Source of the DNA: Flavobacteriaceae bacterium
GTDB lineage: Bacteria; Bacteroidota; Bacteroidia; Flavobacteriales; Flavobacteriaceae
Direction: 5' to 3'
Assembly: GCA_965224465.1 (NCBI GenBank)
Contig: OZ245049.1
Span: forward strand, 3,900,001-3,932,000
DNA length: 32,000 nt
The position numbers were made by a program, and so were the translations under genes. Of this stretch, positions 1 through 28,935 are shown in pieces. Position 1 is the stretch's first letter. Every line of letters starts with the position of its first letter. The notes beneath the pieces were generated by a model. It was not told where the DNA came from. It saw only the letters and a program-made list of their open reading frames with translations, and did no database searches.

Positions 1-184
1 GTTTAAAGGAAATACAGAAACTATTTTTCCTTTAACACTAGATGATGAGCACGGGTATTTATACACCGCTATGCAAATAGAACAACGCAATGGTGATGGT
101 TATTTAATTCGTCGTTCTTTTGATGCCATGATTGTCAAAAAAACAGCCTTTTTAAATGCCTACCCACTTCAAAACCCAGAATAA
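1..184 (+). CDS. Cassette gene S (small hypothetical protein), 3' fragment; the 5' end lies outside the window
   Basis: Identical to the 3' part of ORF 2034..2258. The stop TAA at 182-184 overlaps the ATG at 184 (TAATG). Confidence 0.6.
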   Translation, partial: FKGNTETIFPLTLDDEHGYLYTAMQIEQRNGDGYLIRRSFDAMIVKKTAFLNAYPLQNPE

Positions 185-563
185 TGAGTGATTTTTGGAA
201 AAACAAACCTTTAGAAAAAGTGATACGTCACCAAATAGAGTATCATCAAATAAAACAAGAACGTATAAAACCTAATAAACGCCTAGAGATACAAGAAGCT
301 AACGATCAATTTTTTGTAACAAATGAAACAGAAGCATTAACCGCTTTTTGGTGCTATTTTAGTATGGGTGTGGGAGGGGTGTTTTTTTTAATTATCGTAC
401 AATACTTTGGTGTTGGGTTTGTTAATATGGTTACTTTATGGATAGGATTACCTTTTGTTTTATTAGCTTTATTTCATTTAATCATATTCTTTTTAGTACC
501 AATAAAAGAAATAATATTAGACCGTTTACATGGCAAAATAACGTATCCTCGTTTGTTTGGTAA

Positions 564-1687
564 GCTGAATTCAAGTCACAAACGCAACTTTTAGTTAAAT
601 AATAATTGTTCCATTACAAATATAGGGTTTTGATATTTATGTCTCTTCCTAGGTCTGTTATTTAATTTTGTTTCTACCTCTTTGATTCTTTGATCTGTTA
701 GGTTTGTAAAGTCACTTCCTTTGGCAAAATATTGTCTAATCAAACCATTTAAATTTTCGTTAGATCCTCTTTCCCAAGAGTGATATGGATGCGCAAAAAA
801 GTAATCAATACATAAATTTTCTGCAACCTGCTCATGGCCTGCAAATTCTTTTCCATTATCAGCTGTTATAGTATGTAGATAAGGCTTCCAGTCTTCTAAT
901 ATTTCATTGATAGCTTTAGTGACAACAACTGCTTCTTTAGAGCTTACTTTTTTCATTTTAAGCATTCCAGAAGCTCTATCATTTACGGTAAGTATGGCTT
1001 GATTATGGTTTTTACCTATGATTAAATCGACCTCTAAATCTCCAAATCGATTTCTTTGTTCAACAACTTCAGGGCGTTGTTCTATACTAATACGATTCTT
1101 TATAACCCCTCTAGAATCCTTTGATGAGCCACGTTTTCTATATCTCCTTCCCTGTCTGCGAAGGTGTGTATGTAAATCACCATCATTCCTCTTGTCTTCC
1201 CTAATATGCTGATATATACGCTCAATAGACACCGTTTCTTTACCTTGTTTTTTTAGGACACCAACTACTTGCTCAGGACTATAATCGTCTCGCAATAACA
1301 ACTCTATTGCTTGTTGAATATCTTCTGTAAAGCGTTTTCTTTTAGGCTTTTCTTTATGACGTTTAGCATACTTTTTTTGGGCTAATTCATGCTTGTAAAC
1401 TCCATTTCTTTTGTCTGAATTACGCTTAATCTCTTTGCTAATAACAGACTTGTCTTTTCCTATAGCAGCTGCTATCTCAACCTGTTTATAACCTTGTTTT
1501 AACATGCAACAAATTGTGTATCTTTGCGCTTGGGTGATGTGTTTCATACAACTTCTTTTTTCGAGATTTGAGACCGTAAGATACATATCCATCAAGACAA
1601 GAAAGGTAGGTTTTCCTACTTTTCTGTTTTGAAAATATAACCATCATAGAATCAAATCGAAAAGTTGCGTTTATTAGTTGAATTTAA
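564..1687 (-). mobile_element. IS30-family insertion sequence (~1124 bp)
   Basis: Imperfect terminal inverted repeats: GAATTCAAGTCACAAACGCAACTTTT at 567-592, versus the reverse complement of the right end, AAATTCAACTAATAAACGCAACTTTT. Flanking GTAA at 560-563 and 1688-1691. Removing the element plus one GTAA restores the uninterrupted sequence tttggtaataaag seen in copy 3. The exact junction is ambiguous by 1-2 nt. Confidence 0.85.
591..1547 (-). CDS. IS30 family transposase
   Basis: N-terminal HTH (QRYTICCMLKQGYKQVEIAAAIGKDKSVISKEIKRN), DDE core (LEVDLI ... TADNGKEF) and the family hallmark NENLNGLIRQYF. The track ORF extends to 1595. The ATG at 1547 (MKHITQAQRY) fits typical IS30 N-termini better. 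Confidence 0.9.
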   Translation of the reverse strand: MKHITQAQRYTICCMLKQGYKQVEIAAAIGKDKSVISKEIKRNSDKRNGVYKHELAQKKYAKRHKEKPKRKRFTEDIQQAIELLLRDDYSPEQVVGVLKKQGKETVSIERIYQHIREDKRNDGDLHTHLRRQGRRYRKRGSSKDSRGVIKNRISIEQRPEVVEQRNRFGDLEVDLIIGKNHNQAILTVNDRASGMLKMKKVSSKEAVVVTKAINEILEDWKPYLHTITADNGKEFAGHEQVAENLCIDYFFAHPYHSWERGSNENLNGLIRQYFAKGSDFTNLTDQRIKEVETKLNNRPRKRHKYQNPIFVMEQLLFN

Positions 1688-2033
1688 GTAATAAAGAGCA
1701 TCGTACCATACAATTTGATTCGTTGCACGTGTATGCTACCATGACCACCACTGGCGATTTTGCTGCGACAGGAAAAAAAATACGCATTAAAGACAGAAAG
1801 TACAGTTATACATGGGATTTAGAAAGTAGTAATCCAGATGAATATTGGAGTTTTATGGTGTGGTATATGGATAGGAACAGGCCATTGCCTCCTGGTACTG
1901 CTTTTGATCCGTATAGGAAAAAGGACTTTGAGCGCAGAAAAACCGCGGGATTTCCTAAGCCTTTATATCCAAGCAATATAGCAACACCTGAATTTACCAA
2001 GTCGCAACAAAAAGAACGGAAATTAATTGGAGG

Positions 2034-2258
2034 ATGGTAATAAAATCGCATGCAAAAAATGCTGTATTATGTAAGTTTAAAGGAAATACAGAAACTATTT
2101 TTCCTTTAACACTAGATGATGAGCACGGGTATTTATACACCGCTATGCAAATAGAACAACGCAATGGTGATGGTTATTTAATTCGTCGTTCTTTTGATGC
2201 CATGATTGTCAAAAAAACAGCCTTTTTAAATGCCTACCCACTTCAAAACCCAGAATAA
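2034..2258 (+). CDS. Cassette gene S (74-aa hypothetical protein)
   Basis: Its ATG overlaps the upstream L stop (ATGGTAA) and its stop overlaps the downstream L start (TAATG). Conserved in three copies. Confidence 0.65.
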   Translation: MVIKSHAKNAVLCKFKGNTETIFPLTLDDEHGYLYTAMQIEQRNGDGYLIRRSFDAMIVKKTAFLNAYPLQNPE

Positions 2259-2990
2259 TGAGTGATTTTTGGAAAAACAAACCTTTAGAAAAAGTGATAC
2301 GTCACCAAATAGAGTATCACCAAATAAAACAAGAACGGATAAAACCTAATAAACGCCTAGAAATACAAGAAGCTAACGATCGTTTTTTTTGTAGAAAATG
2401 TATCAAGTGCACTGATTTATTCGAAAATATCATTTTTTACAAGTATAGCCTTTGTTCTGATTTTTTATTTAATTTCTTTAATGAATATAAAGGGGGGATT
2501 TCCTTTAAAAGGATATTTAGGAATTACCCCTTTTTTGCTAATAAGCCTTATTTTTCTAATCATACATTTTATGGCGCCAATAAAAGAAATAATATTAGAC
2601 CGTTTACATGGCAAAATAACGTATCCTCGTTTGTTTGGAAATAAAGAACATCGTACCATACAATTTGATTCGTTGCACGTGTATGCTACCATGACCACCA
2701 CTGGTGATTTTGCTGCGACAGGAAAAACAATACGTATTAAAGACAGAAAGTACAGTTATACATGGGATTTAGAAAGTAGTAATCCAGATGAATATTGGAG
2801 TTTTATGGTGTGGTATATGGATAGGAACAGACCATTGCCTCCTGGTACTGCTTTTGATCCGTATAGGAAAAAGGACTTTGAGCGTAGAAAAACCGCGGGA
2901 TTCCCTAAGCCTTTATATCCAAGCAATATAGCAACACCTGAATTTACCAAAGCGCAACAAAAAGAACGGAAATTAATTGGAGGATGGTAA
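2258..2990 (+). pseudogene. Cassette gene L copy 2, frameshifted by one extra T in a homopolymer tract
   Basis: ORF 2258..2644 carries the L N-terminus and ORF 2481..2990 the L C-terminus in another frame. T8 at 2383-2390 contrasts with T7 at 3333-3339 in intact copy 3. Deleting one T gives one open frame across 2391-2481. Confidence 0.8.
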
Positions 2991-3208
2991 TAAAATCGGA
3001 TGCAAAAATTGCTGTATTATGTAAGTTTAAAGGAAATACAGAAACTATTTTTCCTTTAATACTAGATGATGAGCACGGGTATTTATACACCGCTATGCAA
3101 ATAGAACAACGCAATGGTGATGGTTATTTAATTCGTCGTTCTTTTGATGCCATGATTGTCAAAAAAACAGCCTTTTTAAATGCCTACCCACTTCAAAACC
3201 CAGAATAA
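2984..3208 (+). CDS. Cassette gene S (74-aa hypothetical protein)
   Basis: Same overlapping start and stop arrangement as 2034..2258. Differs from it at 3 nt, all amino-acid changing (H6D, N9I, T27I). Confidence 0.65.
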   Translation: MVIKSDAKIAVLCKFKGNTETIFPLILDDEHGYLYTAMQIEQRNGDGYLIRRSFDAMIVKKTAFLNAYPLQNPE

Positions 3209-3939
3209 TGAGTGATTTTTGGAAAAACAAACCTTTAGAAAAAGTGATACGTCACCAAATAGAGTGTCACCAAATAAAACAAGAACGGATAAAACCTAAT
3301 AAACGTCTAGAAATACAAGAAGCTAACGATCGTTTTTTTGTAAAAAATGTATCAAGTGCACTGATTTATTCGAAAATATCATTTTTTACGGGTCTAGGCA
3401 TTCGCTTGTTCTTTCTTTTAATAACAATTGGAACTCCAAAAGAAAAAATACAAATAAATTTAAATTTGGTAGTTATTCCTTTTATATTAATAAGCCTTAT
3501 TTTTCTAATCATACATTTTATGGCGCCAATAAAAGAAATAATATTAGACCGTTTACATGGCAAAATAACATATCCTCGTTTGTTTGGTAATAAAGAACAT
3601 CGTACCATACAATTTGATTCGTTGCACGTGTATGCTACCATGACCACCACTGGCGATTTTGCTGCGACAGGAAAAAAAATACGCATTAAAGACAGAAAGT
3701 ACAGTTATACATGGGATTTAGAAAGTAGTAATCCAGATGAATATTGGAGTTTTATGGTGTGGTATATGGATAGGAACAGGCCATTGCCTCCTGGTACTGC
3801 TTTTGATCCGTATAGGAAAAAGGACTTTGAGCGCAGAAAAACCGCGGGATTTCCTAAGCCTTTATATCTAAGTAATATAGCAACACCTGAATTTACCAAA
3901 GCGCAACAAAAAGAACGGAAATTAATTGGAGGATGGTAA
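3208..3939 (+). CDS. Cassette gene L copy 3, intact 243-aa membrane protein (hydrophilic N-terminus, two hydrophobic segments, ~140-aa conserved C-terminal domain)
   Basis: Single uninterrupted ORF. Hydrophobic segments are ISFFTGLGIRLFFLLITI and VVIPFILISLIFLIIHFMA. No family recognised. Confidence 0.75.
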   Translation: MSDFWKNKPLEKVIRHQIECHQIKQERIKPNKRLEIQEANDRFFVKNVSSALIYSKISFFTGLGIRLFFLLITIGTPKEKIQINLNLVVIPFILISLIFLIIHFMAPIKEIILDRLHGKITYPRLFGNKEHRTIQFDSLHVYATMTTTGDFAATGKKIRIKDRKYSYTWDLESSNPDEYWSFMVWYMDRNRPLPPGTAFDPYRKKDFERRKTAGFPKPLYLSNIATPEFTKAQQKERKLIGGW

Positions 3940-4093: not shown

Positions 4094-4253
4094 TACCAAC
4101 TTCATTTCCAAGTGACGGTTTAGAAATAGAATTACTTTTTTGTTCTAGCTAGGCGGAAAATGGAAGGATAGCCTTAGCTATCGTTCTGTTTTTCAACAAC
4201 GATAGCACGTAAAATAGACTATTTATATCGGTCATTTTGGATTTTAATTGGTA
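4094..4253 (+). repeat. MITE-like intergenic repeat, full-length copy A (~160 bp)
   Basis: Left arm TACCAACTTCATTTCCAAGTGACGGTTTAGAAATA. The reverse complement of the right arm is TACCAATTAAAATCCAAAATGACCGATATAAATA, an imperfect ~34-bp inverted repeat of the left arm. The core matches copy D. Confidence 0.8.
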
Positions 4254-4256
4254 GTA

Positions 4257-4366
4257 TAGCTAGGCGAAAATTCTTAGGGTAGCCATTAGCGATCGTTCTA
4301 TTTTTATCAACGCTAGAACATATAATAAAATATTTATATCTGTTATTTTGGATTGTAGTTGGTGTA
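4257..4366 (+). repeat. MITE-like repeat copy B (core + right arm only), starting 3 nt after copy A
   Basis: tagctaggcgaaaa...caacgctagaaca...atatttatatctgttattttggattgtagttggtgta aligns with the core and right arm of copies A and D. Confidence 0.7.
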
Positions 4367-4722: not shown

Positions 4723-5075
4723 GTGAAAAAATGTAGCTCCCTGTGATGGAATTAAGCAGAAACTGGAGGGTAATAAAAGACGTATGAGAATTATAAGTGC
4801 TTTTACGCTTGTAATTATAAATAAAGGAGCTTTGTATGCTGCCTCTTTTGTGCTTGATATGGGGATGATAGTAGAGGTGTTTGACTGTTTAGTGTCAGCT
4901 TGTTTATTTTCTTTTAAAAGCGTTGTTTAACGCCTCTTTAATTTGTTAAAGCCTATAATTATATTGAATTATTTTTTACAAGATAAAAGGTATAATAGCT
5001 TCGCCTTTGTTATCGCAATCTAAGTATGCAAATAGGTGTGAAATAGAAACCATAGAATGCAACATTATATACTTA

Positions 5076-5183
5076 TACCAACTACATCTCCAAGTGACGG
5101 TTTAGAAATGGAATTACTTTTTAACAACGCTAGAACCTAAAATAAACTATTTATATCGGTTATTTCGGCTTGTAATTGGTGTA
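5076..5183 (+). repeat. MITE-like repeat copy C (both arms, ~52-nt internal deletion)
   Basis: taccaactacatctccaagtgacggtttagaaatggaatta...aacaacgctagaacc...ctatttatatcggttatttcggcttgtaattggtgta. Confidence 0.75.
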
Positions 5184-8980: not shown

Positions 8981-9015
8981 TCATTTATATCGGTCATTTT
9001 AGATTGTAATTGGTA
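8981..9015 (+). repeat. Solo right arm of the MITE-like repeat (copy H)
   Basis: tcatttatatcggtcattttagattgtaattggta matches the right arms of copies A and D. It spans the kinase stop codon (8999-9001). Confidence 0.7.
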
Positions 9016-11014
9016 TTTTAATGTGAATTTGTGTTCCTAGTTTAGTTTTTGAAATAAATTTGACATTTCCTTTTAAATCTTTTACTCGGGACTTTATATT
9101 TTTTATACCGATGCCTTTTTTTGTCTTTTTAATATTAAACCCAATGCCATCATCTTCGATATTAAATAGGATAAACCCGTTCTTTTCTGAAAAAAGGATG
9201 CGAACATTCGATGCTCTCGCATATTTGTTGATGTTTTGAATGGATTCTTGTAAAATTCTGTAACAATTAATTTTAATGGTATTCGATATTTTTTCTGAAT
9301 TTAAGTTTTCACTAAAACGCACGTCGTATTCAAAGTTAGTTATTTTACTTTGTTTTAATAATAATTGAAGGATGAGAGTTTGAAAACTCATGCTTTCATC
9401 GAATTTACTGGAGTATAGATCATGAGATATTTTACGAATATCTTCTTCTATTGATTGTAATTCTTCAATGCTCTTTTCTCGGTTTGCGATGTCTTTTTCT
9501 TCGTTACTTTCGTTTATAGCATCTAAGCTTAAACGGGTTCCAAAAAGTCTGCCTAAAATATCATCATGCAGTTCTTTAGAAAATCTCTTTTTTTCTTTTG
9601 AGCTACCTTCATTAAACATTTTTTGCTGAGATAACATTAAATTATAGATTTCTACGTTTGCCTTACCTTGTTCTTGAATATGTTCCAATTCTTTATTTCT
9701 TGATCTTTGTCTAAGGTAAATAAAGAAAAGAATACTGAAACTAGCTCCAACTATAGAAAACAAGATTACTTGCCATTTTTCTTTTTTTTCTATTTCTTTT
9801 TCTATAATTATTTCATCTGTTTGATAGGCGATTCTTGTAAATTTTTCTCGTATGATACGTTCTTGTTGCTGTAGGCTATCTGATAGTTTTATGTATTTTT
9901 CTAAGTGTCTTTGACCTTTTTTTCCTGGTTCAAGTTTAGATAATAGTAGGTAGGACTCTAGAAGTCCTTCATTATAATTTGATTCTTGTGAGATTTTTTT
10001 AGCTGTTAAAGCGTGGTTAATTGCTGTTAAAGTATCGGATTGACTAAGGTAATATTCGGATAAATGTTGATTGCTCATCACTTGTCCGTTTTTAAAATGT
10101 AAACTGTCTCTAATTTTTAAGGATTTAAAAAATAGTTCAGGGAGTTTATTTAGTTGCTCTAATTTAAAATAGGAGTATGCCAAATTGTCTAATAAATTGG
10201 CATACGTTTGAGGCCTATTACTAAGAAGACCTTTTATTTTTAATGCTTGGAGGTAATACGTAATGGATTCTTCATATTTTTCGCTTTTGTGATACACCCA
10301 TCCTATATTGTTGATGGAAATTGCCTCTAAATATTTTGTGTTTCCTGCTAACTTCAAATTTTTGATTGCTTTCAGGTTGTTTTCTATGGCGAGATTATAA
10401 CGACTTAATTTATTATAAACAACGCCTAAGTTATTGTAAGCTAGGTATAAGCTTCTGTATTGGTGGTTGTTTTTTAAAATTTCAATTGCTTTTATGGAAT
10501 TAATTTCACTGCCTGTGTAATCTTTTATGTTTTCTTGGATTATCGCTAGACTTAAGTAATTTCTTCCTACATCCTTTTGTTTATTTGCTTTTTTGTGAAG
10601 CCTTAAAGCTTTACTGTAAAAATAAAAAGAACTATCAGGTTTGTAACTTAGCTGATAATAATATCCGAGATTTTCATTTATTAAGGCATAACTTAGAGTG
10701 TCTTTTTTAATAGAAGAAACTTTTAATGCAATGAGGTTTAGTTTTTTGAACTTTTCTAAATCCCCTTTTATTAGGTAATCGTAGGCTGTTTTTAAAGCTG
10801 TATTTATTTTTAAAGAATCATTTTTAAAATTGGATATAAGTAATGTTGTTTTCTTTAGTACATCTATTTTTAAGGAGTCTCTTATAAAAGAAGTGTTTAA
10901 TTCTATGGTACCTGTAGCGGGTAGCGTGTGTTTGTCTGCAGCTGTTCTTGGAGTGCACTTTGCAGAGCAACACATGGAGAAAAAGAATAGAATTATTACA
11001 AAACGACGCGTCAT
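8999..11014 (-). CDS. TPR-repeat sensor histidine kinase (HisKA_3 + HATPase_c)
   Basis: N-terminal signal, TPR-like repeats, TM segment VILFSIVGASFSILFFIYL, H-box ELHDDILGRL and ATPase motifs NINKYA, EDDGIGF, KGIGIKNI. Confidence 0.85.
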   Translation of the reverse strand: MTRRFVIILFFFSMCCSAKCTPRTAADKHTLPATGTIELNTSFIRDSLKIDVLKKTTLLISNFKNDSLKINTALKTAYDYLIKGDLEKFKKLNLIALKVSSIKKDTLSYALINENLGYYYQLSYKPDSSFYFYSKALRLHKKANKQKDVGRNYLSLAIIQENIKDYTGSEINSIKAIEILKNNHQYRSLYLAYNNLGVVYNKLSRYNLAIENNLKAIKNLKLAGNTKYLEAISINNIGWVYHKSEKYEESITYYLQALKIKGLLSNRPQTYANLLDNLAYSYFKLEQLNKLPELFFKSLKIRDSLHFKNGQVMSNQHLSEYYLSQSDTLTAINHALTAKKISQESNYNEGLLESYLLLSKLEPGKKGQRHLEKYIKLSDSLQQQERIIREKFTRIAYQTDEIIIEKEIEKKEKWQVILFSIVGASFSILFFIYLRQRSRNKELEHIQEQGKANVEIYNLMLSQQKMFNEGSSKEKKRFSKELHDDILGRLFGTRLSLDAINESNEEKDIANREKSIEELQSIEEDIRKISHDLYSSKFDESMSFQTLILQLLLKQSKITNFEYDVRFSENLNSEKISNTIKINCYRILQESIQNINKYARASNVRILFSEKNGFILFNIEDDGIGFNIKKTKKGIGIKNIKSRVKDLKGNVKFISKTKLGTQIHIKIPITI

Positions 11015-11242: not shown

Positions 11243-11400
11243 TACCAAATACATTTCCAAGTGACGGTTTAGAAATGGAATTATTTTTATTTTAGATAGG
11301 CGAAAAACGGAAGGATAATCTTAGATATTGTGCTGTTTTTCAACTGCGTTAGAACGTGAAATAAACTATTTATATCGCTCATTTTTAATTGTAATTGGTA
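11243..11400 (+). repeat. MITE-like repeat, full-length copy D (~158 bp)
   Basis: Collinear with copy A across left arm, core and right arm. Confidence 0.8.
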
Positions 11401-13750: not shown

Positions 13751-13789
13751 TATCCATTAAATTTCCAAGTGTCGGTTTAGAAAGGAGTT
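13751..13789 (+). repeat. Degenerate solo left arm of the MITE-like repeat (copy F)
   Basis: tatccattaaatttccaagtgtcggtttagaaaggagtt. Confidence 0.55.
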
Positions 13790-14054
13790 GTTTTTCACAA
13801 TAGGTTGTGGTAAAGTGACAATGTAATGCGATAGTATAAGCTAAATTACTGTTAGATAGCTTTTTTATTAATTTCTTGAAGGATTTTTTATCTGGAAGGA
13901 AAAAGAGGGGGTGATTAGAGTTGTTGCTTTATTTTTTAATGATAAAGAAACGGGAAATTGGAAATGATCGGAGTTATTGGTTCGTATTTATTTTCTTGCC
14001 TGCTTTGACAAAAGAAACGAAGGTTAAAGATGTATTGGTTTTAGTTTAAGGCTT

Positions 14055-14939
14055 TTATAAGGTGATGGTTTCCCCCATTTTAATAGTGGTTTCCAGGCCT
14101 TTTTTAGTGTTTATGATAAGGTCTTCGCTAAAATGGATGCCTCCTTTGTTTTCGAAAAGAAGTACCAAGGTGGAACCTCCGAAAGAAAAGAATCCTTTCT
14201 CTTCTCCTTTTTGTATTGTCGTGTTATCTGTATAGGTTTGTGTAATTCTACCTACCATAGTTGCGCCTACTTCTGTGATTAAAATATCGCCTTGATCTGC
14301 TGTTTTAAGAGTGCTGTAGGCACGTTTGTTTTCACAAAAAATACGGAGACTTCTTTTTAAGGCAAATGGAGAAACCGAAAAATAATGCCCTTTTATTTCT
14401 GTAGAAGGTGAAATTATTCCCGAATATGGGAAATGAAATCGGTGATAGTCCGCAGGAGCAAGTCGAATAATTGCCATAGCACCATCTGCGTATTTTTGAG
14501 CAATATTTTTGTTTTGAGTAAAACTTACGAGGTTAAATTTTGTTCCTTTAATAAAGAAAGAGTCGACGTCTTTTATGGAAGGAAAAACTAGTATTTTACC
14601 ATCCGCAGGTGAAACAATATTTTTTTCTATTGTCCGTGCATTAGCGTTTAGTTTTCTGTAAAAGAAATCATTAAAAGATGTAAATTGGGCTAAGGTGTTT
14701 TTTCTACATTCTTGAATATTAACAGCGTTGACTCGTATAAATCTTTCTATTCGTTTGGTGGAATGTCTGCTATCCATATATTTCCCGCAGAGCACAGTTA
14801 CCATCTTTCGTTTCATCAAAAGGTGGAGTGTAGCTTTGCCAATAGAACCATTATAAAACCATTTTAAAAGTCCTTTTCCAGGGACAATCTCATGTTTAAG
14901 TTGATTCGTATTTCTTTCTATATAGTTGATTTTATCCAT
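14055..14939 (-). CDS. psd: Phosphatidylserine decarboxylase family protein
   Basis: The self-cleavage G-S-T motif in FSFGGSTLVLLFE near the C-terminus, plus PADYHRFHFP. Confidence 0.8.
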   Translation of the reverse strand: MDKINYIERNTNQLKHEIVPGKGLLKWFYNGSIGKATLHLLMKRKMVTVLCGKYMDSRHSTKRIERFIRVNAVNIQECRKNTLAQFTSFNDFFYRKLNANARTIEKNIVSPADGKILVFPSIKDVDSFFIKGTKFNLVSFTQNKNIAQKYADGAMAIIRLAPADYHRFHFPYSGIISPSTEIKGHYFSVSPFALKRSLRIFCENKRAYSTLKTADQGDILITEVGATMVGRITQTYTDNTTIQKGEEKGFFSFGGSTLVLLFENKGGIHFSEDLIINTKKGLETTIKMGETITL

Positions 14940-15332: not shown

Positions 15333-15352
15333 ATGAAAAAATAATATACTTA

Positions 15353-15392
15353 TACCAACTACATTTCCAAGTGACGGTTTAGAAATGGAATT
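15353..15392 (+). repeat. Solo left arm of the MITE-like repeat (copy E)
   Basis: taccaactacatttccaagtgacggtttagaaatggaatt, ending 8 nt from the stop codon of 15401..16813. Confidence 0.75.
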
Positions 15393-15400
15393 GGTCTTAC

Positions 15401-16813
15401 TTATTTAGTAGCACCATATACATTTATTTCTGCCAAATGATCATAGTAGTTAGGGCCTTCTATTGCGACGTATTTAAAGTACCTAGCAATAATAGCTTTG
15501 TCCAAAGTGTTTAATTGGGCTGCATTTGTTTTTTTCATAGTATAGGTGCCTACAGCAATCCATGTTTTATTGTCTGTACTTACAAAAAATTGATGTTTTG
15601 TGTGTCCTGTTGAACGATTTTTCCATCTGAATAATTCGAAACTTGAAATTGTTTTTTCAGATTTCATGTCTACAACAATACTGTGTGGATAGGGTGCTTT
15701 TACAGCCTTCCATTCAGAATGCCAAAAAGTATTTAAGTTCCCATCAATTATATTTGTAGCTGGTTTAGGAGGGTGTTGTGAAGAATAGCTGATAACTTCC
15801 CAGTCGGTTTTGTTAAACTTAAGGGCTTCAATTGGAGTTACTGTGAGTGCGATAGGTCCAAAACTATTCCCGTAAGCATCACTAATAGAGACGAGTATCG
15901 TTTGTGAGATCCCTTCTAGTCCTCCTAGTGTATTCCCTCCTAATTCTGTATTTGAGCTTATTTGATGTGAAGAGGTTTTTCCTTTAACATTATAGGAAAA
16001 TTTTAGCCCTATATTTTGTTCTGATGGATTTTTCCAAGTAATAAATACCCCTCCTAAAATAGGTTTGAGTTTTACGGATTCTAAAATGGATGAAATACTA
16101 GGGAGTTTAAATGGAGACCAGTCCGAAGCAAATAGGTCTATAGAAGTTTCTTCACCTGTTTCTTCATCTATAGAGGTAGGTACATAATAAGTACGGTAGG
16201 TTATTGGCTTATCAATGTCAACGTTGGTTAATGTACCTGCTGTCTTATCGTAACTTATTTTACAAATAATTTCTTTTCCTGAGTCATCTGAGAATTTAAT
16301 TTCGGTATCTCTAGCTAGGTCATCACTTGGTTTTAGTTCTATAAGTGCATTTCCAGTATTGCCAAAAGAGAAAGTTTCAATAGCTCTAGGGTTTAGGTTT
16401 TTTCTATAGGTCTCTCCGTATGCCGTTGCATACGTAATTGCATTAACAGAGGTGTTTGCTAGTTTATCTCTTGAAATCACATTAAACTCGTAGGACTGTT
16501 CTTCCAATCCTTCAATTAATAATTCGAGTTTGTCTGTCTTATTACTCGATTTTTTATACGGAAATACCTGTTTCCCTTTTCCTTTGTTCCAGGTAACTTC
16601 TATTTCTTTTACATTAAATGCATTGCTTATATAACCAATTATTTTAATTCTTTTGTTTCCAGAGAGGACGTTTAATGAATCTATTTTATTGGTGTAAATC
16701 TGTTCTCCATTTTCGGTGTATTTTTCATGAAATTCGAAAGTGTCATTACAAGCAGTAATTCCAAATAGAATGGATAAAATTATAGGTATGATATAATATT
16801 TATGGTTTCTCAT
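15401..16813 (-). CDS. PUL-associated surface lipoprotein with a C-terminal F5/8 type C (discoidin) domain (DUF4998-like N-terminus)
   Basis: Lipoprotein signal MRNHKYYIIPIILSILFGITAC if started at ATG 16813; the track start at 16897 would overlap the upstream gene. C-terminal NIIDGNLNTFWHSEW is discoidin-like. Confidence 0.8.
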   Translation of the reverse strand: MRNHKYYIIPIILSILFGITACNDTFEFHEKYTENGEQIYTNKIDSLNVLSGNKRIKIIGYISNAFNVKEIEVTWNKGKGKQVFPYKKSSNKTDKLELLIEGLEEQSYEFNVISRDKLANTSVNAITYATAYGETYRKNLNPRAIETFSFGNTGNALIELKPSDDLARDTEIKFSDDSGKEIICKISYDKTAGTLTNVDIDKPITYRTYYVPTSIDEETGEETSIDLFASDWSPFKLPSISSILESVKLKPILGGVFITWKNPSEQNIGLKFSYNVKGKTSSHQISSNTELGGNTLGGLEGISQTILVSISDAYGNSFGPIALTVTPIEALKFNKTDWEVISYSSQHPPKPATNIIDGNLNTFWHSEWKAVKAPYPHSIVVDMKSEKTISSFELFRWKNRSTGHTKHQFFVSTDNKTWIAVGTYTMKKTNAAQLNTLDKAIIARYFKYVAIEGPNYYDHLAEINVYGATK

Positions 16814-16833
16814 AATTTGTTTCTTAAAATTAA

Positions 16834-18021
16834 TTATTTTTTGATTTGTCCCCAGAATGTTATTTCTGCTGCATTTGTAATTCCTGAAGAATTCCATGTT
16901 TCATGAATTGCAATTCTAAAATACCTTATCTCAATAGGTTTGTCAAAGGTGTACTGATCTCCTGCTTCGGCATGATCCATATCCTCATCTGTGTTCTGTC
17001 CTATTGGAAGTCCTGATGGTTTGGTAGATTCGCAGTGTCTTAAAAGAATCCAGTCATCTAAATTCCCTTCAATACCAGGGGTTTCCTTGGTTCCATATAC
17101 GGTGTATTTTTTTGGGTTACCATGGGTGTATGCGAACTTAGAATGCGTAGTTTGGTATAGGGTAAATCTACTAAGGGTTACGTTCACTCCTAAGTCAACA
17201 GTTAGCATGCTAGGGCGTACGTGATCTCCTGGAGTATGTACAATGGTTTTTTTATTGTCATCAAAGAAATTCCAGTAGTCTCCTGACCAAGCATCCCAAT
17301 TATCATCGTTTTGTAAGACTATTTTCTTGAATTTTTTCTTGTCCAAACGCTCTTCAAATAAGGGGGTTAATAGTAGGTCTGTAGTTTTAGCATAGATGGT
17401 GTCAGAAAAATTATCATATCGGTCTCTAACAATGGCACAAAATAAAGTAGGTTTTGGGGCGAATCCTCTAACGGATGTTTTTGAAGATGCCTGTTCTGTG
17501 TATTGAGTTTTGATCAGTTCTATTTTTCCTTCCTCATTTTTGGCTAATAAATCAATGGAAATAGGGGTGTTGAATTTGTTTTCCCAACTAAATTTAGCGC
17601 CTCCAAAATCACTTGTAATAAGAAGGTTTTTTTGAATTATTTGAACAGGTGATATCAGCGGCTTTTTTTTAATTATAACGGGTTCTGATTGATTATTTGA
17701 GCGGTCTACGGTATAAATTTTTATTGTTTTTTCTTTCGTATTTCCGAGTCCTAAAATTTGTATTTCATTATCAAAAATAGAAGCCTTTACTTCCGCTAAT
17801 TCTTTTTTAGAATTGAGGTATTCTGCCTTTACATATAAGAGGTCAGTCCCTTGAGGGAGGTCATAACTAATGTTAAAGCCTCCATTTGTAGGGATTGTTA
17901 TTACATTTTCTACCATTGCTGGTTTCTCTGTGTCGTTTGATATTGGACCGTGTTGGTATTCTTCACAGCCAAAGAAGAGTAAGGATAAAGATGCTATTAA
18001 ATAATTGATTTGGTATTTCAT
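16834..18021 (-). CDS. PUL-associated surface lipoprotein with a C-terminal F5/8 type C-like domain (DUF4959/DUF5000-like)
   Basis: Lipoprotein signal MKYQINYLIASLSLLFFGC from ATG 18021. Position immediately downstream of SusD. Confidence 0.75.
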   Translation of the reverse strand: MKYQINYLIASLSLLFFGCEEYQHGPISNDTEKPAMVENVITIPTNGGFNISYDLPQGTDLLYVKAEYLNSKKELAEVKASIFDNEIQILGLGNTKEKTIKIYTVDRSNNQSEPVIIKKKPLISPVQIIQKNLLITSDFGGAKFSWENKFNTPISIDLLAKNEEGKIELIKTQYTEQASSKTSVRGFAPKPTLFCAIVRDRYDNFSDTIYAKTTDLLLTPLFEERLDKKKFKKIVLQNDDNWDAWSGDYWNFFDDNKKTIVHTPGDHVRPSMLTVDLGVNVTLSRFTLYQTTHSKFAYTHGNPKKYTVYGTKETPGIEGNLDDWILLRHCESTKPSGLPIGQNTDEDMDHAEAGDQYTFDKPIEIRYFRIAIHETWNSSGITNAAEITFWGQIKK

Positions 18022-27632: not shown

Positions 27633-27696
27633 TGTGAAAACCTCGTAAACAGCAAGTACTTCTTACAATCTTTTTTTATTCGTAATGATTGTATTT

Positions 27697-28706
27697 TATG
27701 CTTGTCCGCTAGTTTCCCTAATATTTTTGTTGTATTTTCATAAAACATAAATAATCGATATGAGATTAATTGAATTTAGTGAGCACTACCCAGATGAAGC
27801 CAGTTGTAAAGCAGCATTTAAGTCCTATCGCGAAAAAGAAGGGGTTAAGTGTAAAAAGTGTGGAGGAACTACTCATTATTGGAAAAAGAAACGAGAACAG
27901 TGGGAATGTAAAAACTGTACTCACAGAACAACGTTGAAAAGCGGTACTGTTATGCAAAGCAGTAAATTACCTTTTAAGTATTGGTTTATAGCTATGCATT
28001 TAATAACAAGCACAAAAAAATCATTTTCGGCTAAAGAGATTCAACGTCAGATAGGTCATAAAAGATATGAGCCTATTTGGGCAATGGTTCATAAGTTAAG
28101 ATGCGTTATGGGGTTAAGAGACGATGAATATCAGCTTAGTGATGAGGTTGAATTGGATGATGGGTTTTTTGAAACCGTTTCAATAACAAGAGATAAAACA
28201 GCACCTTTAAAAAGGGGGCGAGGAAGTCAAAGACAATCAATAGTATTAGTAAGTATAGAGTCTAAACTAGAATCAGAACACTATAACAGCAAGAAACACA
28301 GGGTGAATAAGAGAGTGAAATTCCTAAAGATGAAAGTAATCAGTTCTTTAAAGAAAGAAGAGGTAGCTCAAACTGTAAATCAAATGGTTGAAGGAGGTAG
28401 CAAAATAATTTCCGATGGATCAAATAGCTTTAATGACTTGACTAAGGATTTTGAACTAGTCTCTAATGTTGTGCCAAAGAAAAATATCAATTCTATTTTA
28501 CCTTGGGTTCACAAAGCAATTAGTAACGCCAAAAGGCTATTACTGGATGTCCATCATAGAATAGATGATGATTTTCTTCAAAATTACTTGAACGAGTACT
28601 GCTACAAATTCAATAGGAGAACATTTAATAACTTATTCGACAGGCTTATGATTGCAGCGGTATCATATAGATGGAATTATCTTGGGGAAGTTAACGGATA
28701 AGCATA
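27697..28706 (+). mobile_element. IS1595-family insertion sequence (1010 bp) with 8-bp target-site duplication
   Basis: IR-L is TATGCTTGTCCGCTAGTTTCCCTAA (27697-). The reverse complement of IR-R is TATGCTTATCCGTTAACTTCCCCAA, matching at 20 of 25 positions. Identical TTGTATTT flanks at 27689-27696 and 28707-28714. Confidence 0.85.
27760..28701 (+). CDS. IS1595 family (ISXO2-like) transposase
   Basis: N-terminal zinc-ribbon (CKKCGG...CKNC) followed by a DDE-type domain. The stop codon lies inside IR-R. Confidence 0.85.
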   Translation: MRLIEFSEHYPDEASCKAAFKSYREKEGVKCKKCGGTTHYWKKKREQWECKNCTHRTTLKSGTVMQSSKLPFKYWFIAMHLITSTKKSFSAKEIQRQIGHKRYEPIWAMVHKLRCVMGLRDDEYQLSDEVELDDGFFETVSITRDKTAPLKRGRGSQRQSIVLVSIESKLESEHYNSKKHRVNKRVKFLKMKVISSLKKEEVAQTVNQMVEGGSKIISDGSNSFNDLTKDFELVSNVVPKKNINSILPWVHKAISNAKRLLLDVHHRIDDDFLQNYLNEYCYKFNRRTFNNLFDRLMIAAVSYRWNYLGEVNG

Positions 28707-28729
28707 TTGTATTTCTTGCGTGTTATAAT

Positions 28730-28768
28730 ACATTTATAAGTGACGGTTTACAAATTGAATTATTTTTT
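28730..28768 (+). repeat. Degenerate solo left arm of the MITE-like repeat (copy G)
   Basis: acatttataagtgacggtttacaaattgaattatttttt. Confidence 0.5.
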
Positions 28769-28935
28769 GGTTCAAAAAAAAGGGTAAAAGAAATACATCT
28801 TTTACCCTTTTTAATTCAAACAATTCAAACAATAAAATAATTCAGTAACCTCGACCCAAGGGGGCGAGGTGTGTTTTCTGAAAGACTTTTTTTATTTCAA
28901 GGCTGAGCCTCAGGAAATACCCTTTAAATAAGGGG

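Follow-up and report, generated by a model that had tools for sequence, protein, structure and literature searches.

A probable MITE family of uniform local orientation in a marine Flavobacteriaceae lineage

Overview

The repeats scattered over the window (the whole stretch of DNA that was analysed, 32,000 nucleotides of a Flavobacteriaceae chromosome) are most likely copies and decayed fragments of a non-coding MITE that underwent amplification within one marine Flavobacteriaceae lineage; we assign this reading a probability of about 0.8. The unit is small, has terminal inverted repeats and no coding capacity, is associated with a target-site duplication and occurs in many dispersed copies. 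We count eight of them in the window, seven in contigs of ENA assembly ERZ25073217 and at least ten in other assemblies, at unrelated loci. The original prediction had described the repeats as MITE-like, and this description holds in view of the target-site duplication, an empty orthologous site and the copies in other genomes. A MITE is an ordinary, known kind of element. The results provide a defined MITE family (with its ends, its 3-bp T(T/A)A duplication and its variants) for the poorly studied, uncultured marine and subseafloor Flavobacteriaceae.

The window has 33% G+C and carries SusC/SusD genes, hybrid sensor kinases and LytTR regulators. Among named entries, its Gfo/Idh/MocA protein is closest to one labelled "MAG: Flavobacteriaceae bacterium" (92% identity), followed by proteins from Polaribacter, Lutibacter and Aureibaculum at about 83-84% identity. 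Loci from other assemblies are referred to below by numbers with the prefix L.

Copies in the window and structure of the unit

A profile was built from five full copies and run over the window with nhmmer (--max, filters off). It recovers exactly eight units, all on the + strand, each positioned as had been predicted or a few bases away. The units are:

4094-4253, + strand: copy A, full, 160 bp (nhmmer E=1e-50, model 1-158)
4257-4366, + strand: fragment D, core and right arm, starting with TAGCTAGG (nhmmer model 51-158, E=3.5e-19; alignment)
5076-5183, + strand: copy C, both arms, core lost (nhmmer model 1-47 and 95-158; alignment)
8981-9015, + strand: fragment H, right arm only (1 mismatch in 23 nt; nhmmer model 126-158)
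11243-11400, + strand: copy B, full, 158 bp (nhmmer E=2e-45)
13751-13849, + strand: fragment E, diverged left arm and part of the core (nhmmer model 4-92, E=1.4e-6; 2 mismatches)
15353-15399, + strand: fragment F, left arm only (nhmmer model 1-47, E=6e-11; 0 mismatches)
28728-28773, + strand: fragment G, degenerate left arm and spacer, CCAAC tip missing (nhmmer model 7-52, E=5e-6)

The extents first proposed were retained for five units and revised for E (longer, reaching 13849), with F running to 15399 and G occupying 28728-28773. No independent minus-strand copy was found in the window with nhmmer --max. The minus-strand matches are weak reverse self-matches of full copies only, as inverted arms would produce. 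A direct search with the 23-nt cores of the arms gave the same polarity: the left-arm core TTTCCAAGTGACGGTTTAGAAAT occurs six times and the right-arm core ATTTATATCGGTCATTTTGGATT five times at no more than 3 mismatches, always on the + strand, with 0 occurrences of either expected from shuffled sequences.

The unit is ~160 bp long (158-190 bp across copies, with long variants of about 180-190 bp). It begins with TACCAA and ends with TTGGT(A/G), and the terminal hexamers TACCAA and TTGGTA form a perfect inverted pair. The inverted arms of ~37 nt are imperfect (27 of 37 positions are complementary), and the arm consensi of the original prediction are correct. Copy A consists of a left arm, a T-rich spacer, a two-hairpin core and a right arm; its left flank is TTA, and on the right it adjoins fragment D, which begins 3 nt beyond it. 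In the copies from the North Pond MAGs (see below), the order is left arm, T-rich spacer, two-hairpin core, an optional module of ~23 nt and right arm. As had been predicted, the element has no coding capacity, the longest stop-free stretch being 34-37 aa. Pairwise identity among full copies is 79-92%, and copy A of the window is nearer to copies from other genomes than to copy B. The family is thus not young, and copies within a genome have not been homogenised.

Several structural variants were observed. An extra module of ~23 nt (e.g., TTGTGCTCAACCTGATTTGGC) is present between the core and the right arm in L002, L003, L006 and L009. A small G+C-rich hairpin insert (CCGACGGGTCGG-like) is found at the junction of spacer and core in L006 (4870-4890) and L013 (about 10790-10810). 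Copies with the extra module or the hairpin insert form long subfamilies of 175-190 bp. Copies C (5061-5075) and F (15338-15352) share ~13 nt of similar sequence, AT(T/A)ATATACTTA, upstream of the TACCAA terminus, which is preceded by CTTA in 6 of about 14 copies. These similarities point to a target preference of greater extent or, in some copies, to a left end that is slightly longer.

The repeats had been described as intergenic throughout, which applies to all of them except fragment H. On the opposite strand, H supplies the 3' end of a histidine kinase gene (8999-11014, - strand), namely its last four codons and the stop codon. This TPR histidine kinase ends with IPITI* in the window and with IPILNQMK* in a relative (L018), where the orthologous junction is devoid of the arm. 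The comparison indicates that the insertion of H rewrote the C-terminus and the stop codon of the kinase. Other insertions of the family are located inside operon spacers, e.g., that of ahpC-ahpF. Copy B lies just past the terminator hairpin of the upstream small gene, and its flanks do not match (AAA and TTA). Fragment F ends 1 nt before the stop codon of the gene at 15401-16897 (- strand).

Imperfect inverted repeats of 60-160 bp that follow gene ends in the same orientation bear a superficial likeness to the attC-like recombination sites of an integron cassette system, but the context effectively refutes such an assignment. The segments flanked by the repeats hold genes on both strands, a tRNA and a 13-kb polysaccharide-utilisation locus, and no integrase was found among the ORFs of the window (Pfam scan, ORF list). 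Moreover, the attC core sites RYYYAAC and GTTRRRY are not matched by the ends TACCAAC and TTGGTA, and the copies in other genomes occur singly, inside ordinary operons such as ahpC-ahpF.

Copies in other genomes, an empty site and the target duplication

The evidence for mobility of the MITE comes from other genomes. A 20-mer from the left arm was scanned against 185,579 species-representative genomes. The scan returned nine true copies, in the North Pond Flavobacteriaceae MAGs NORP129, NORP150 and NORP167, and one chance match inside a glycosyltransferase gene (L004), which was discarded. Further full copies were found in GCA_016764435.1, in a Logan contig and in ENA assembly ERZ25073217. Altogether, at least five other Flavobacteriaceae assemblies carry full copies, which lie at unrelated loci. 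In other collections, the left-arm 20-mer had no match in a scan of JGI metagenomes, and blastn against plasmids gave no match to the element. A 19-mer scan of metagenomes returned five matches, all of which are chance matches with unrelated flanks, and the sole match in viral contigs is likewise a chance match, inside a cyanophage psbA gene.

One of the copies in NORP167 (L005) resides in the spacer between ahpC and ahpF. The same spacer was retrieved from other assemblies via AhpC homologues. It is filled in L005, L013 (GCA_016764435.1) and L014 (the Logan contig) and empty in L015, a relative with an AhpC that is 94% identical. In the orientation of the element, the empty site reads GGGGTG-TTA-AAAGAAGG and the filled site reads GGGTG-TTA-[TGCCGATT...AATTGGTG]-TTA-AAGGAAGG, with the element in the outer brackets. 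The comparison of the filled and empty sites fixes the ends of the element and reveals a 3-bp TTA target duplication, which answers the earlier call for a search for target-site duplications. Identical 3-nt flanks (TTA/TTA or TAA/TAA) were also observed at L001, L003, L005/L013, L007, L008 and L009. In total, about 7 of 11 copies have matching flanks, and those of B, C, L006 and L010 do not match. By itself, this concordance is only weakly significant (about p=0.09), given that TTA or TAA is found on nearly every flank. The 3-bp duplication is carried by one empty site, that of ahpC-ahpF, with the concordant flanks in addition.

These features are consistent with the following course of events. 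A DDE-type transposase encoded elsewhere would recognise the arms and excise the element, which would then be pasted into AT-rich intergenic T(T/A)A sites, where the repair of the staggered cut would double the 3 bp at the target.

Resident insertion sequences and the search for a partner transposase

The window contains two insertion sequences:

564-1688: IS30-family element with inverted ends of ~29 nt; transposase at 591-1547 (- strand)
27697-28706: IS1595-family element with inverted ends of 28 nt and an 8-bp TTGTATTT duplication (27689-27696 and 28707-28714)

The original prediction found no convincing match between the arms and either of these elements, and the comparison of their ends leads to the same result. 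The IS30 ends (GCTGAATTCAAGTCACAAACGCAACTTTT) share with the arms only a short TTCAAGTSAC-like stretch, and the IS1595 ends are unlike the arms. Two elements from other contigs were also considered as partners and rejected: the ends of the IS4-like element of L017 do not match the arms, and those of an element with an IS5/PIF-like transposase (L021, 5856-6671), which read GAAGTGATTTAAAC..., are unlike them. Neither a cognate autonomous IS with matching ends nor a longer element bounded by these arms was found in the window and the related contigs, and in the genome collection none of the nine genuine arm matches is followed by a transposase.

A 3-bp TTA or TAA duplication is the signature of Tourist/PIF-Harbinger elements, and subgroups of the bacterial IS5 family generate duplications of 2-4 bp that are centred on TA. 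The duplication of the MITE is like that of the Tourist/PIF-Harbinger-IS5 group; the only IS5/PIF-like ends seen in the related contigs (L021) are unlike the arms, and no link is shown. The resident IS30 element splits one gene of a tandem set and is flanked by a TAA duplication (561-563 and 1689-1691), which was defined against the uninterrupted paralogue at 3560-3600. This duplication has the same length and is of the same sequence type as that of the MITE. Identical or near-identical IS30 transposases are encoded on seven contigs, among them contigs of ERZ25073217. The duplication type fits IS5/PIF-Harbinger-like or IS30-like enzymes, and we regard the TAA duplication of the resident IS30 element as a lead, not as a link.

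Lineage-specific gain and decay of copies

Syntenic scaffolds of relatives were reached via the psd and Gfo/Idh/MocA genes of the window. Scaffold_143 of TULL18 (L018 and L028) is syntenic with the window over 36.8 kb, with a protein identity between 80% and 96%, and contig NVRM01000010.1 of NORP167 together with scaffold_564 (L029/L030) is syntenic over about 20 kb. No element copy is present in these ~57 kb, as opposed to five copies or fragments (H, B, E, F and G) in the window. The syntenic spacer of L018 at the place of copy B is devoid of the element; clean empty-site junctions are not definable for B, E and H, the syntenic spacers of L018 being too diverged. At fragment G, L028 has a spacer of 78 bp between two convergent genes, where the window has the IS1595 element, which is missing from L028, and about 200 extra bases. 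The extra bases include the arm, and it is the arm that ends exactly at a terminator hairpin shared with L028. Fragment G is located immediately upstream of this hairpin and 14 nt past the target duplication of IS1595. Taken together, synteny indicates that the family spread to many loci in the lineage of the window after its split from the sequenced relatives, which makes this a recent lineage-specific expansion.

Contigs of ERZ25073217 encode transposases that are identical to those of the window and seem to be from the same organism. Among these, one full copy lies in L011 and four partial copies lie in L016; in L017, a solo left arm adjoins a full copy. No element copies were found in L021 and L022.

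The fragments show recurrent features. Deletion derivatives include an arm-plus-arm unit of 72 bp (L008), and internal deletions break at microhomologies (T-runs in C, TATT in L008 and GGAA in L010). Breaks at such short microhomologies are typical of decay by slippage, from which arm-only fragments and half elements result. A recurrent breakpoint is located between the two halves of the element, at the junction of GTTC and TAGCTAGG: fragment D starts there, and fragment G (28773) and the solo arm of L017 (6740) end there. A full copy adjoins a half-unit both in the window (A and D, 4254-4257) and in L017. For these two pairs, a nested insertion was considered; the complementary halves and duplications that it predicts are absent. 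The targeting of own ends, as practised by IS30-type elements, could account for both pairs.

Orientation of the copies

The claim that all eight copies have the same polarity is confirmed by nhmmer (8/8 on the + strand), and the uniformity recurs on other contigs (L016, 4/4 on the - strand; L017, 2/2 on the - strand). The probability of such uniformity is about 0.002 when A and D are counted as one event and L017 is ignored. The same-strand polarity is probably real, and chance is a poor explanation. The original prediction had derived a strand-specific role from this polarity. The data do not establish such a role: there is no consistency relative to genes and little sign of covariation, most copies are decayed fragments, and in relatives the relation to GC skew is mixed. 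Orientation relative to the flanking genes does not provide a rule either. Counted over every locus, about 12 insertions point the same way as both neighbours, 5 (H, B, E, F and L005) run antisense to both and 4 are placed between convergent genes.

One form of a strand-specific role would be that of a structured RNA or cis-acting transcript element (3'-end stabiliser or terminator) that is functional from the + strand only, the spread and orientation of which are kept by selection. Many copies are indeed located directly past gene ends, and the + strand folds far better as RNA than the - strand, both for copy A (-46.8 kcal/mol, z -5.6, vs -34.0, z -3.4) and for copy B (-37.5, z -4.0, vs -23.0, z -2.2). 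In addition, the central hairpin with its T-rich tail scores as a weak terminator-like site. The top strand is, however, G+T-rich (G 28-30 vs C 18-24), and the asymmetry of the folds may be an effect of composition only. A compensatory double change was found in 1 of 36 consensus pairs (covariation term -0.09), in copies that, at 79-92% identity, are too similar for a strong test. The five antisense insertions also argue against a transcript element, as does the finding that most copies in the window are fragments that are incapable of the fold. In an Rfam scan of the window, only tRNA-Met passes, and lenient scans of the elements alone return noise (E>1). The possibility, raised earlier, that the motif belongs to a catalogued RNA family can thus be set aside with respect to Rfam, even at lenient thresholds. 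A sigma-70 promoter scan gave no excess over shuffles, with a consensus that is uninformative for Bacteroidota. Overall, we consider an RNA function of the repeats improbable.

GC skew was used to relate the orientation to replication. The skew and the strand of the element are +0.086/+ in the window, +0.14/+ in L011, -0.17/- in L016 and -0.09/- in L017. By total GC skew, each of the four contigs from the window's organism therefore has the top strand of the element on its G-rich strand, as a bias linked to replication would have it. The skew of L016 and L017 is dominated by gene direction, which makes the replication inference weak for these two contigs. When the skew component is separated from gene direction, it has the wrong sign at L001 (a=-0.12, element on +) and L013 (a=+0.06, element on -), and in relatives the orientation versus the replication-type component of GC skew is mixed overall.

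A cut-and-paste DDE mechanism does not by itself predict a uniform orientation. Our leading guess for the uniformity over tens of kilobases is a bias in insertion or retention that is tied to the direction of replication. In its explicit version, a DDE-type MITE would have its insertion or survival coupled to replication, such that the G+T-rich, hairpin-prone top strand is always the leading-strand sequence (the lagging-strand template) and the orientation flips at origin and terminus; we regard this version as unlikely. Replichore polarity is known for the single-strand elements of the IS200/IS605 group and for TnsE targeting by Tn7, and we know of no ordinary bacterial MITE with such a polarity. 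Should the orientation follow replication across the whole genome, the family could serve as a simple model of fork sensing by a cut-and-paste element or of selection on repeat orientation. Absent a link to replication, the finding is an ordinary repeat annotation.

The polarity could also stem from single-stranded DNA transposition or fork targeting (in the manner of IS200/IS605-derived PATEs or of Tn7 TnsE), with the top strand always being the lagging-strand template. The uniform orientation inside each contig and the location of the top strand on the G-rich strand in the four contigs would agree with this, and the top strand of copy A folds slightly better as ssDNA than the bottom strand (-19.4 vs -16.2). 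IS200/IS605 elements have, however, neither terminal inverted repeats nor a target duplication, and the repeats have clear terminal inverted repeats and a 3-bp duplication that is confirmed by the empty site. PATEs have subterminal hairpins, and their left flank is a fixed tetra- or pentanucleotide that occurs on the left only, whereas the flank is TTA or TAA here and is mirrored on the right. No Y1/HUH transposase is encoded at any locus examined, and the reservations about skew apply here as well, namely the wrong signs at L001 and L013 and the dominance of gene direction in L016 and L017. We consider such a mechanism improbable.

Comparison with known repeat families

The MITE resembles well-known families in general organisation. 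Correia elements (NEMIS) of Neisseria and ERIC/IRU elements of enterobacteria are non-coding units of 100-160 bp, present in large numbers between genes. Their terminal inverted repeats are long and imperfect, and the whole unit forms a hairpin once transcribed. Internally deleted variants and short AT-rich target duplications also occur in these families. In contrast to them, the duplication is 3 bp, T(T/A)A, in the family reported here (TA in Correia and ERIC elements), the host belongs to a marine Flavobacteriaceae lineage, and there is no sequence similarity. To our knowledge, a uniform regional orientation has not been reported as a hallmark of the Correia or ERIC/IRU families. The BOX and RUP elements of Streptococcus pneumoniae are likewise modular, structured and non-autonomous, with variable internal modules, but their sequences, module sets and hosts are unrelated. 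The same applies to MITEPgRS of Porphyromonas gingivalis, another modular, structured and non-autonomous repeat with an unrelated sequence, module set and host.

MITEPgRS illustrates that MITEs exist in Bacteroidota (PMC4596501). A bulk survey, the NAR 2024 MITE census (PMC11602168), reports tens of thousands of MITEs in Bacteroidota, Flavobacteriales included. The arm sequence had no match in the literature and no paper specific to a Flavobacteriaceae MITE was found, in a comparison that covered sources other than the supplementary lists of this census. With respect to the sources covered, the MITE family is, as far as checked, previously undescribed.

Other observations in the window

Two further gene regions deserve mention. 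In the region 1-3939, a gene for a 243-aa protein without a Pfam match is present in three tandem copies that are about 950 bp apart. The third copy (3208-3939) is the sole intact one. The IS30 element interrupts the first (184-594 and 1678-2040), and the second consists of two overlapping ORFs (2258-2644 and 2481-2990), apparently due to a frameshift.

The gene for phosphatidylserine decarboxylase (14055-14939, - strand) is flanked by the left-arm fragments E and F. It is missing from the syntenic region of NORP167. Beyond two close relatives, the best matches of the encoded protein (57-62% identity) are not from Flavobacteriaceae but from Marinilabiliales (Draconibacterium, Marinifilum and Ancylomarina). 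The pattern of matches hints at a horizontal acquisition of this gene.
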